Sequence record: PP738785.1
Origin: Klebsiella phage vB_KpnP_Tribble_ER49
Strand: one strand, 5' to 3'
DNA length: 64,000 nt
Positions 52,219 to 52,902 of the stretch are shown here, in pieces. A program made the translations under genes and the position numbers. Numbering within the stretch: position 1 is the stretch's first letter; every line of letters starts with the position of its first letter. The notes under the pieces are model-generated. The model saw only the letters and a program-made list of their open reading frames with translations. It made no database searches and was not told the DNA's origin.

Positions 52219-52902
52219 TTAGTCGAAGTTAGCAAACGGGTCGTCTTCAGTGTCTGCTGGTTTAGCAAAGCCTGCTTCACTGGTTTCAACTACCTTGGTT
52301 ACCGGAGTGTCTGCCTGAGCAAACAGCTCATCACCTTCAGATGAAGCCAGCCCAGCGTCTGCGAACGGATCGACTTCTTCAGCTACAGCAGCAGCAGCTT
52401 TAGCTTCTGGCAGCAGTTCATTTTCAGCACGCAGGTTTGCACCTTCGTCAATGTCAAACGGAGCATCATTGTCTGCATCACTGGTTTCAGCGAAGAGGTC
52501 TTCTTCACTTTCAGACTGAGCTTCTGCTTCAGCTGCTACCTCGGCCTGAGCTGCGGCTTCTTCAGCAGCTTTATCAGCTTCGATTTCAGCTTTGGTACGA
52601 CGTTTACGACGCTTAACAGGTTTGTCAGTTTCCTGTTCATCCTGGTTGTCGTCATCGTGTTCTTCTTCCTGCTCTGCTTCTTCCTGTTCAGCAACAGGCG
52701 TACCACCAGAAACCAGAGGAGCTTGCAGATCAGTAACAGATTTCAGGCGGAAGTTATCTTCGCCTACAGCTACTGCTGCCACGATCTGACCATCCAGAAT
52801 ACCTACTTCAACATCGGCTGCTTTGGCTGTAGGCACGAGACTGGTAAACGCATGTTTGGTTACCAGTTCGATCAGATCTTCAGTAGAAAGCAAAATACGC
52901 AT
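52219..52902 (-). CDS. acidic disordered protein with three SSB-tip-like D-x-P-F motifs
   Basis: Roughly 75-aa N-terminal domain, basic patch 'KPVKRRKRRTK', then an E/A/D-rich tail with 'DAPFDIDE', 'VDPFADAG' and a C-terminal 'EDDPFANFD'. Confidence 0.45.
   Translation of the reverse strand: MRILLSTEDLIELVTKHAFTSLVPTAKAADVEVGILDGQIVAAVAVGEDNFRLKSVTDLQAPLVSGGTPVAEQEEAEQEEEHDDDNQDEQETDKPVKRRKRRTKAEIEADKAAEEAAAQAEVAAEAEAQSESEEDLFAETSDADNDAPFDIDEGANLRAENELLPEAKAAAAVAEEVDPFADAGLASSEGDELFAQADTPVTKVVETSEAGFAKPADTEDDPFANFD

Follow-up and report, generated by a model that had tools for sequence, protein, structure and literature searches.

The 64,000-nucleotide stretch of the Klebsiella phage vB_KpnP_Tribble_ER49 genome analysed here (PP738785.1; hereafter the window) raises the question of why a protein encoded directly after a phage Holliday-junction resolvase should carry, on a long acidic tail, several peptides that resemble the C-terminal tip of a single-stranded DNA-binding protein (SSB). 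The gene in question, at 52219..52902 on the minus strand, begins with ATG and specifies 227 residues with an isoelectric point of 4.05. The phage is an N4-like podophage (Schitoviridae, Efbeekayvirus), and bases 50000-56000 of the window share 97.4% DNA identity with vB_KpP_FBKp27. A first-pass annotation proposed that the tail mimics the bacterial SSB tip and so decoys or recruits SSB-interacting enzymes, or else that it mimics DNA. That reading is partly supported by the comparisons described below; it appears right in spirit, but should point to the SSB tip of the phage itself and to the resolvase instead of the host SSB interactome. The comparisons indicate that chance does not account for the likeness of the tail motifs to the phage SSB tip, and they place the protein, as a divergent and multivalent member, in the Bes2/gp47 family: it is orthologous by position, and remotely homologous, to N4 gp47 and to Ab09 gp61 (Bes2).

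Organisation of the protein

The gene directly upstream (52905..53468; this and all other window features located below by coordinates lie on the minus strand) encodes a RuvC-like Holliday-junction resolvase, as first annotated. It matches phrog_159 (E 1.4e-32), corresponds to N4 gp46 and to Ab09 gp60 (Bes1), and has D9, E77, H160 and D163 invariant across 7 genera. Its TAA is separated by 2 nt from the ATG of the 227-residue protein, which has its own AAGGA Shine-Dalgarno sequence 6 nt upstream. The two genes are translationally coupled, and the RuvC-like protein is the presumed partner of the N-terminal domain. The phage SSB is encoded at 53797..54537 (phrog_743, E 1.7e-65) and ends TTGDDPFTM, its tip GDDPFTM (53800..53820) being the peptide that the tail seems to copy.

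The division of the protein into a small N-terminal domain, a strongly basic stretch and an acidic disordered tail, noted at first reading, is agreed on by the open reading frame call, the sequence and the AlphaFold2 model. The N-terminal domain (residues 1–50; 52753..52902) is modelled with a pLDDT of ∼80 as a short strand, a helix (residues 7–22) and a β-hairpin (residues 29–46, with strands 29–36 and 39–46). Foldseek gave nothing significant for this domain in the PDB (best E 0.93), and BFVD returned only family members; an AbrB/MazE-like hairpin fold was rejected (Foldseek E > 1.5). An acidic linker, EQEEAEQEEEHDDDNQDEQETD (residues 72–93; 52624..52689), is the least conserved part among close orthologues. 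It is followed by the basic stretch KPVKRRKRRTK (residues 94–104), which together with the start of a weak helix forms the patch KPVKRRKRRTKAEIEADKA (residues 94–112; 52567..52623). AlphaFold2 assigns the tail pLDDT values below 60 (39–57 over residues 61–220), the weak helix at 104–128 excepted. The tail is not explained by any known domain in Pfam: a scan of this protein, the SSB, the RuvC-like protein and a 107-residue neighbour gave no match, the protein itself reaching only a sub-threshold hit to Htt HEAT (E 0.059).

All seven Phe residues of the tail sit in short motifs. Three of these have the P-F core, at residues 148–149 (DAPFDIDE), 179–180 (VDPFADAG) and 222–223 (EDDPFANFD), and were originally described as D-x-P-F; DAPF and DDPF fit that description, but the second is V-D-P-F, and the shared core is an acidic residue close before P-F (NDAPF, EVDPF, EDDPF). 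Each core lies within a longer conserved element. DAPFDIDE belongs to the module NDAPFDIDEGANLRAENELLPEAK (residues 145–168; 52399..52470), VDPFADAG to the SSB-tip-like motif EEVDPFADAG (residues 175–184; 52351..52380), and EDDPFANFD to the C-terminal module SEAGFAKPADTEDDPFANFD (residues 208–227; 52222..52281), which carries the terminal copy of the SSB tip. Two acidic-L-F variants, SEEDLFAE (residues 132–139; 52486..52509) and EGDELFAQ (residues 189–196; 52315..52338), and the motif EAGFAKP complete the set. The Phe is never the last residue, being followed by DIDE.., ADAG.. or ANFD in the tail and by T-M in the SSB.

Such motifs are more numerous than composition predicts. In 200,000 composition-preserving shuffles of residues 105–227, the probability of at least three PF was 0.002 and that of at least five [LP]F was 9e-5. 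This bears on the suggestion that the tail is a DNA mimic, and on the related one that it is a meaningless low-complexity acidic tail. The low isoelectric point and the net tail charge of -0.21 per residue would suit either, but the tail is predicted to be disordered, not a folded scaffold of regular carboxylates of the Ocr or ArdA type. Nor is the charge conserved, the family median being -0.095 with basic motifs in some tails; the conserved features are the aromatic motifs and the sequence in which they stand, and the shuffles reject chance. We regard both suggestions as extremely unlikely, and DNA mimicry in particular as unlikely to be the function of the family.

Correspondence between the tail motifs and the SSB tip

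The tail motifs follow the SSB tip of the same phage. In the window phage, the SSB tip DDPFTM is accompanied by DAPFD, VDPFA and DDPFANFD in the tail. In Pectobacterium phage CB1 the SSB ends SDLFL and the tail has four DLF motifs, the last being the C-terminal LDLFS; in Acinetobacter phage Presley the SSB tip KRQFFKR is matched by four KR[ST]FG+K motifs. The pairs of SSB tip and tail motif are PASLFS and GGSLFS in Pseudomonas phage PEV2, RPSLFGKK and RPSLFGNLG in Achromobacter phage phiAxp-3, RKSLFDKKS and RQSLFSGLKK in Erwinia phage Frozen, and KSLFNKKP and GGLFAHLP in Xanthomonas phage PB119. Among metagenomic loci, QSLFAKPQS is paired with VSLFAKPQSN (L080), DNLFG with ENLFG (L054), KSIFAA with SSIFGG (L066), and ADNPFM with two copies of NDNPF, one of them in NDNPFDKFD (L016).

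This correspondence was quantified with 80 IMG/VR loci (of ∼490) fetched with a RuvC-like profile, from which the SSB and the gene following the resolvase were extracted; they represent 48 Schitoviridae lineages at <75% RuvC identity. The match score was the best ungapped BLOSUM62 alignment of the last nine SSB residues with the tail. Its mean over the 48 lineages was 19.38, compared with 13.3±0.3 for shuffled tails and 15.1 for the longer RuvC-like protein. When tips were permuted among lineages the mean fell to 17.19±0.52, and the observed value was reached in 14 of 100,000 permutations. Since permuted tips score lower than true pairs, there is lineage-specific covariation beyond the common SLF core. 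The position of the Phe agrees as well: lineages in which it lies within one residue of the SSB C-terminus (two in the tail), and those with a longer extension, show the same state in both proteins (16/1/6/25; Fisher 4.6e-7). The 48 lineages are related, so that this value and the permutation value overstate independence and are not exact. Roughly half of the lineages have no aromatic residue in the tail other than the Phe of the motif.

Codon usage indicates the level at which the likeness is kept. Of the codons for residues that tip and tail share, only 76 of 148 are identical, and the two copies often use different Ser codons (AGC against TCG); in the window phage the codons of the SSB tip and its tail copy likewise differ (GATGATCCGTTC versus GACGACCCGTTT). 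Because codons often differ, it is the peptide whose likeness is maintained; for the same reason, gene conversion involving the 3' end of the SSB gene was rejected as the source of the tail copies.

The covariation also identifies which SSB tip is the model. The resemblance to an SSB tip pointed out in the first-pass annotation is real, but the peptide imitated is the tip of the phage's own SSB, not the bacterial DDDIPF. If the three acidic-P-F motifs did imitate DDDIPF, they would recruit or titrate ExoI, RecQ, PriA, RecO and other members of the host SSB interactome; DDPF is indeed nearer to DDDIPF than are the SLF tips of other N4-like phages, and the tail shares the acidic character of the bacterial tip. 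Yet the family pattern tracks the phage SSB whatever its chemistry, basic (KSLFGKK, KRQFFKR) or acidic (DDPF), and most family motifs are of the non-acidic [KR]xSLF(G)(KK) type. Moreover, the pockets that receive the bacterial SSB C-terminus, as in the ExoI, RecQ and PriA complexes, use the free carboxylate of the terminal Phe. With a Phe that is never C-terminal this contact is missing, and the Ile of IPF is absent. Decoy or recruitment of the host SSB interactome is thus weakened as a reading, and we consider it very unlikely.

The same motif cores could be read as β-clamp-binding motifs (consensus QL[SD]LF), in which case the host sliding clamp would have both the SSB and a resolvase adaptor as its clients. 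Many family members have the [SD]-L-F core, LDLF of CB1 matches 4 of the 5 consensus positions, the motif is C-terminal after a flexible linker, and clamp clients do share one motif. However, few of the motifs have the Gln at -4 or the hydrophobic residue at -3, and variants such as DDPF and KRQFF are unfit; in the window protein EDLF and DELF match the last three positions only, and DPF does not fit. N4, furthermore, is described as replicating with little need for the replication proteins of its host. The N4 SSB tip has a different known target, the β' subunit of host RNA polymerase (PMC4496689), and clamp binding seems to us a very remote prospect.

Motif conservation in group B

Loss of the motifs among orthologues had been named beforehand as an observation that would speak against a role for them. 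They are retained: across 127 distinct close orthologues their cores show little or no variation (EGDELFAQ is present in 127 of 127), which at 95–99% identity is weak evidence, and they are kept in unchanged order in the relatives P0135–P0144, at only 31–48% identity. These belong to what we call group B, with the window phage, CB1 and the loci L016 and L017. The ordered modules of group B are the basic patch KRKRRTKAEIEAD (K[KR]R[KS]RRTK.EI.AD), [DN]PFA, TPPFD[IV]DEGA..RAEAELLPEA, [DN]DPFA.MG, DELFAQP, DGF[VA]KP and a C-terminal D[DN]PFA.F[ND]. The [DN]PFA element occupies the position of SEEDLFAE in P0136, P0137 and P0139; [DN]DPFA.[ML] and DELFAQP occur in P0135–P0139; and the C-terminal module can be aligned among the window phage, L016, CB1 and P0135–P0144. 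Tails of group B are multivalent, with 3–6 motifs each, whereas most family members have a single copy.

The contigs of the group-B relatives were looked up only after their tails were known, and thus provide an out-of-sample check. The SSB tips of P0136 and P0137 are DDPFAMQ and DDPFAMM, and the cognate tails end DPFA.FN (DPFAAFN, DPFASFN); those of P0142 and P0144 are DNLFM and DNMFL, with tails ending INLFA and LELFS. The last tail motif therefore switches between DPF and [LN]LF in step with the SSB tip, SSB and tail having the same P-F or L-F state in 8 of 9 group-B lineages (including CB1, L016, L017 and the window phage).

One element stands apart from this pattern. The module at residues 145–168 contains an internal xPF[DEN] motif that is family-wide and unlike the SSB tip; its counterpart in P0135–P0137 is the TPPFD[IV]DEGA..RAEAELLPEA module. 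PF[DEN] is found in 9 of the 48 lineages, where 2.3 would be expected, and is lengthened to 22 residues in group B. Tails of L005, L026, L027, L043, L056 and others also contain [PVA]PF[DEN].[DE], for example as PPFEPD, VPFDAD and APFDMP. This motif may serve a different partner.

Among related Klebsiella phages, DNA identity in the 6-kb region 50000-56000 is 95–97%, yet the protein itself is only 82 to 94% identical in tblastn comparisons, mainly through insertions and deletions of A/E/D repeats in the linker, such as an additional AEADAEAD in L014, so that the tail spacers change faster than adjacent genes while the motifs remain fixed.

Relationship to N4 gp47 and Ab09 Bes2

The order SSB, RuvC-like gene, gene of the present type, small membrane protein and convergent virion RNA polymerase (vRNAP) is common to N4, CB1, PB119, phiAxp-3, PEV2, Frozen, Presley and ∼80 IMG/VR contigs. 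The product in the gp47 slot of each of these phages has a ∼50-residue N-terminal domain and a low-complexity tail, and the gap between the resolvase gene and the gp47-type gene is mostly -11 to +34 nt (∼80 loci). The N-terminal domains share a signature, M-x-I-x-L followed by a helix and a β-hairpin, to which the window protein conforms.

Direct sequence similarity is faint. BLASTP gave no alignment between the protein and N4 gp47; tblastn against 50,697 phage records found only 12 matches, all in close Klebsiella phages; an exhaustive HMMER search through 1.84 billion representative sequences returned only 12 clusters; and a word-indexed protein search gave near-identical sequences alone among its best 120, the version based on an N-domain profile giving 14 short proteins. 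A hidden Markov model of the canonical gp47 N-domains also misses the protein. Because of this miss, the homology depends on profile–profile comparison and on the bridge provided by the resolvase fusions described below. With hhalign, 11 group-B N-domains align over their full length with canonical gp47 N-domains (probability 94.1%, E 1.3e-7, compared with 0.2% for a reversed control); with six sequences only, the probability was 60.7%.

Ab09 Bes2, N4 gp47 and the window protein thus occupy the same slot, right after the RuvC-like Bes1 or gp46 and between SSB and vRNAP. Bes2 and the window protein both combine an N-domain of ∼50 residues, homologous by profile–profile comparison, with a tail modelled at low confidence that has an SSB-tip-like end (GGSLFS in Bes2, PASLFS in its SSB); identity between them is undetectable by BLAST or by a single profile. 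The window protein is longer (227 versus 145 residues) and far more acidic, and differs in its conserved basic patch, in having six aromatic motifs instead of one and in the use of P-F instead of L-F.

The N4 comparison depends on the C-terminus of gp47. In the RefSeq entry (NC_008720 31678-32112; L002 13679-14113) this protein ends KKYRKKRLKNQYKPNLLCLQV, and the gene is one A short in an A-run (GAAGAAG-AAAAG). The same-species phage PMBT57 (L100 2061-2504), and likewise G7C, read EVQEEEAKEPVQAKPSLFAGLKR, ending ...AKPSLFAGLKR, compared with ...AKSLFGKK in the SSB. The RefSeq C-terminus is a frameshift artefact or a strain mutation. Among the early and middle genes of N4, the SSB is the sole annotated product with an SLF tip; once its frame is corrected, gp47 joins it as the second.

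Fusion of the module to RusA-like resolvases

The N-terminal domain of the window protein matches phrog_14238, annotated as RusA-like resolvase (E 7.4e-7), at profile positions 145–283. An explanation is provided by Roseovarius phage RPP1, in which no RuvC-like gene follows the SSB gene and its place is taken by a 300-residue open reading frame (orf60; L102 13157-14059). The first ∼140 residues of orf60 are RusA-like (phrog_14238, E 3e-148; phrog_34, E 2e-9), and the remainder is a gp47/Bes2 module, with MRILLDQDDIQNAL..., a basic stretch and an acidic tail that ends ...KKSSIFDVD. BLASTP aligns the window N-domain with residues 140–197 of orf60 at 36% identity (E 2e-7), and the tail end, KSSIFDVD, is set against a cognate SSB tip of KASLFDD. 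The RuvC-like proteins do not match phrog_14238 or phrog_33948, and it is for this reason that the arrangement is recognised as a fusion to RusA.

Such fusions occur in at least 21 roseophage records and in gp55 of EE36phi1. In Delftia phage RG-2014 the fusion, gp058, has RKSLFAPK and RKSLFSGLGK in its tail, with RKSLFPSKSA in the SSB; in Rhizobium phage RHph_N38 the tail of gp067 has KKSIFGNAS, with KPSLFGKK in the SSB. The related PHROGs are phrog_14238, 1682, 21721 and 33948, and the loci span Rhodovirinae, Dendoorenvirus and Demetervirinae (L105 1459-2397, L103 2189-3307 and L104 2303-2998, besides orf60). No separate gene with a gp47/Bes2 module was found in the region examined of the fusion genomes. 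Their C-terminal halves share with the window protein the N-domain, the basic stretch, the disordered tail and the terminal copy of the cognate SSB tip; the module is covalently attached to a RusA-type nuclease in the fusions, whereas in the window phage it is a separate polypeptide beside a RuvC-type nuclease. Two unrelated resolvase types joined to one module, by fusion or by translational coupling, argue in Rosetta-stone fashion that the module works with the nuclease.

The fused layout of resolvase, domain, long linker and terminal motif would also fit autoinhibition by a pseudo-ligand. The tip pocket would then lie on the complex of resolvase and N-domain, and the tail would fill it in cis until displaced by SSB-coated DNA, the nuclease consequently being switched on only beside SSB. 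The acidic tails of T7 gp2.5 and of E. coli SSB are known to fold back on the binding cleft. Such folding back, which is discussed in PMC5928155, would be a precedent, and the covariation is explained equally well if pocket, tip and pseudo-tip co-evolve. Against this, the pocket is a purely hypothetical one, and the several motif copies of group B are superfluous for a simple cis-lock; we think autoinhibition of this kind quite improbable.

Bes2 and the Ab09 deletion

A function for the family comes from a preprint of June 2026 that named Ab09 gp60 and gp61 Bes1 and Bes2 (bioRxiv 10.64898/2026.06.04.730250). Bes2 alone restores evasion of the Thoeris I and II systems and of the type II-A cyclic-oligonucleotide-based antiphage signalling system (CBASS II-A), neither protein binds or cleaves the signals, and the authors suggest an effect on phage development, reporting no fold similarity and no mechanism (bioRxiv 10.64898/2026.06.04.730250). 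The two proteins are presented as broad anti-Thoeris/CBASS factors; among gp47-type proteins, this phenotype has been reported for the Pseudomonas Bes2 only.

In the same study, the Cas3-generated deletion 41,096-42,899 (delta-gp57-61) was the only viable large deletion recovered in Ab09 (bioRxiv 10.64898/2026.06.04.730250). The 7-bp microhomology CCGGCAG lies exactly at both of its end-points (HG962375, our locus L089, 41096 and 42899). This implies, from the genome sequence, a 1803-bp deletion that would place the final 17 residues of gp61 (...AAKQAAPASTGGSLFS), ending ...GGSLFS, in frame behind SSB(1-246); the predicted fusion product ends ...GRPAPAAKQAAPASTGGSLFS before the stop. The published mutant would therefore probably be an SSB::Bes2-tail fusion, which the preprint text does not mention (bioRxiv 10.64898/2026.06.04.730250). 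If so, the viable mutant kept an SLF tip by borrowing that of Bes2, which would support the interchangeability of the two tips.

The activity of Bes2 alone raises the alternative that the tail only occupies the SSB-tip receptor, as a competitive regulator or decoy, and that the resolvase is merely a neighbour. In one version the β' subunit of host RNA polymerase is held, tuning replication-coupled late transcription; in another, a host sensor of the phage SSB tip is blinded. The first has a direct precedent, in that C-terminal residues of the N4 SSB are the determinant that activates host RNA polymerase through contact with β' (PMC4496689). This determinant is the peptide that N4 gp47 copies (KSLFGKK versus KPSLFAGLKR), although the contact has been shown for N4 only and the window tip is of opposite charge. 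Evasion restored by Bes2 without signal binding (bioRxiv 10.64898/2026.06.04.730250) fits a competitor, as do the 3–6 motifs of group B. On the other hand, the fusion of the module to RusA-type resolvases in several subfamilies and its tight coupling to RuvC indicate that module and nuclease act together; a single copy is the rule among family members; and the acidic DDPF is unlike N4 KSLFGKK, although β' is highly conserved. We judge a pure decoy unlikely.

A broader form of the same idea, which we put forward as a rather speculative and improbable one, treats the SSB tip as a portable address label of N4-like phages. Bes2/gp47, as a multivalent copy, would occupy the tip receptor (in N4, the conserved C-terminal region of β') and so gate the switch, coupled to replication, into late transcription and DNA processing; this timing, and not a signal sponge, would be what allows escape from Thoeris and CBASS. 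The switch would then determine when, and how much of, the immune trigger is made, the trigger being a late protein (the tail fibre in the case of type II Thoeris).

A model for the function of the tail

The reading that we favour, and to which we give about an even chance, is that the window protein is a gp47/Bes2-type accessory subunit of the phage Holliday-junction resolvase, which its tail would tether through copies of the SSB tip. The N-domain of ∼50 residues would associate with the RuvC-like resolvase, as suggested by the RusA-type fusions elsewhere, and the disordered tail would be a flexible tether that displays SSB docking-peptide copies, three acidic-P-F and two acidic-L-F. Judged from the peptides themselves, the tail may bind the same site or sites as the SSB tip, so that the resolvase would be brought to SSB-marked replication and recombination intermediates, where it may compete with SSB. 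The anti-Thoeris/CBASS effect of Bes2 would then be indirect: phage DNA would be processed faster or more cleanly, and signals would not be sequestered.

Candidate receptors, in rough order, are the SSB core, the Sak4-like annealase gp44, the phage DNA polymerase or helicase, the β' subunit of host RNA polymerase and the host β clamp. The peptide evolves rapidly and in parallel in two proteins of the phage, which seems to make a receptor that the phage encodes and that co-evolves with them (one of the first three) somewhat more likely than a conserved host surface.

Known systems provide partial parallels. In T7, the tails of the SSB gp2.5 and the helicase-primase gp4 are interchangeable. These two proteins of one phage share an acidic/aromatic C-terminal peptide and one receptor, the DNA polymerase, on which the tails dock alike (PMC12339929). 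The second carrier in T7 is, however, the helicase itself, as opposed to the resolvase adaptor proposed here, and the T7 Phe is the last residue and present once per chain, whereas in the window protein it is not last and occurs in several copies. The bacterial tip DDDIPF and the tip of the phage HK620 SSB, NDYPPF, resemble the window motifs in that an acidic run precedes P-F on a disordered linker. The last six residues of the HK620 SSB recruit and load its neighbouring Sak4 annealase (PMC5928155), and the window phage also has a Sak4-like gene (55066..55866). The window motifs differ from both in being internal or followed by 2–4 residues, in being repeated and in having a carrier with no DNA-binding domain.

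Several points weigh against the tethering model. Two contacts on which it depends, that of the tail and the SSB tip with a common receptor and that of the N-domain with the RuvC-like protein, are ones that we infer. A tether does not account for three conserved elements, namely the basic patch, the GF(.KP) motif and the internal PPF[DE] module, nor for the increased number of motifs in the Klebsiella/Pectobacterium branch. Plain SLF is common to most lineages, so that the covariation signal comes from a minority of them, and the lineages are related, as noted above. L098 is mixed, with an SSB ending NNPFM and a tail C-terminus of LNLFN, though it has three NPF inside the tail. The canonical N-domain profile, as described, misses the window protein. 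Finally, Ab09 grows when it lacks gp60 and gp61, and the function is thus dispensable in the laboratory (bioRxiv 10.64898/2026.06.04.730250).

If the tethering model holds, an SSB-type address label would be given in trans to a nuclease, and the principle known from T7 gp2.5 and gp4 would hold for recombination enzymes too, throughout a phage family. The Bes1/Bes2 family gains a testable handle, in the form of a docking peptide copied from SSB and a physical link to two unrelated types of Holliday-junction resolvase, and the tip model points to the residues that matter, the Phe of each motif. Neither motif sharing nor resolvase fusion is reported in the Bes1/Bes2 preprint and, as far as we have searched, the literature describes neither of these nor the reinterpretation of the deletion.

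Neighbouring genes

Upstream of the RuvC-like gene, the minus-strand order is primase, the Sak4-like AAA_24 gene (recognised by profile match), an HNH-AP2 endonuclease, SSB and a 107-residue protein. The homing endonuclease gene (HNH_3 + AP2; 54539-55069), is inserted between the Sak4-like gene and SSB; N4 lacks it at this position, and CB1 and several metagenomic relatives have it.

The 107-residue protein, between SSB and the RuvC-like gene (53431-53754), overlaps the RuvC-like start by 38 nt and is called 'Mu Gam-like' in RefSeq through phrog_15896 (E 4.7e-10). Its PFTM (LNLPFTMEE) is identical to the last four SSB residues. This is probably a coincidence, and PFTM was rejected as a copy of the SSB tip; it fits a conserved ...[FI]xxLPF followed by an acidic end in relatives. 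Two group-B relatives (L090 3979-4170; L092 571-789) have, between SSB and resolvase, a gene of 63–72 residues with a Pfam match to the Acb2/Tad1 hairpin, a position that fits the 'anti-signalling hotspot' of the preprint; the window phage has only the 107-residue gene there.

Elsewhere in the window, a 350-residue ATPase (7998-9050; phrog_1297, N4 gp24-like) ends ...ERHADELF, an acidic L-F similar to GDELFAQ. It was considered as a third carrier of the tip and dropped, its N4 homologue gp24 ending ...YVHGSN.

Directly downstream of the gene for the 227-residue protein lies one for a 57-residue protein with two predicted membrane helices (52035-52208), past which is the convergent vRNAP of 3561 residues. 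Small membrane proteins occupy the same slot after the gp47-like gene in CB1, RPP1 and L098, and short open reading frames of similar size (46–66 residues) do so in phiAxp-3, Presley, Frozen and EE36phi1; the arrangement of resolvase, gp47-like gene and small open reading frame appears to be conserved.

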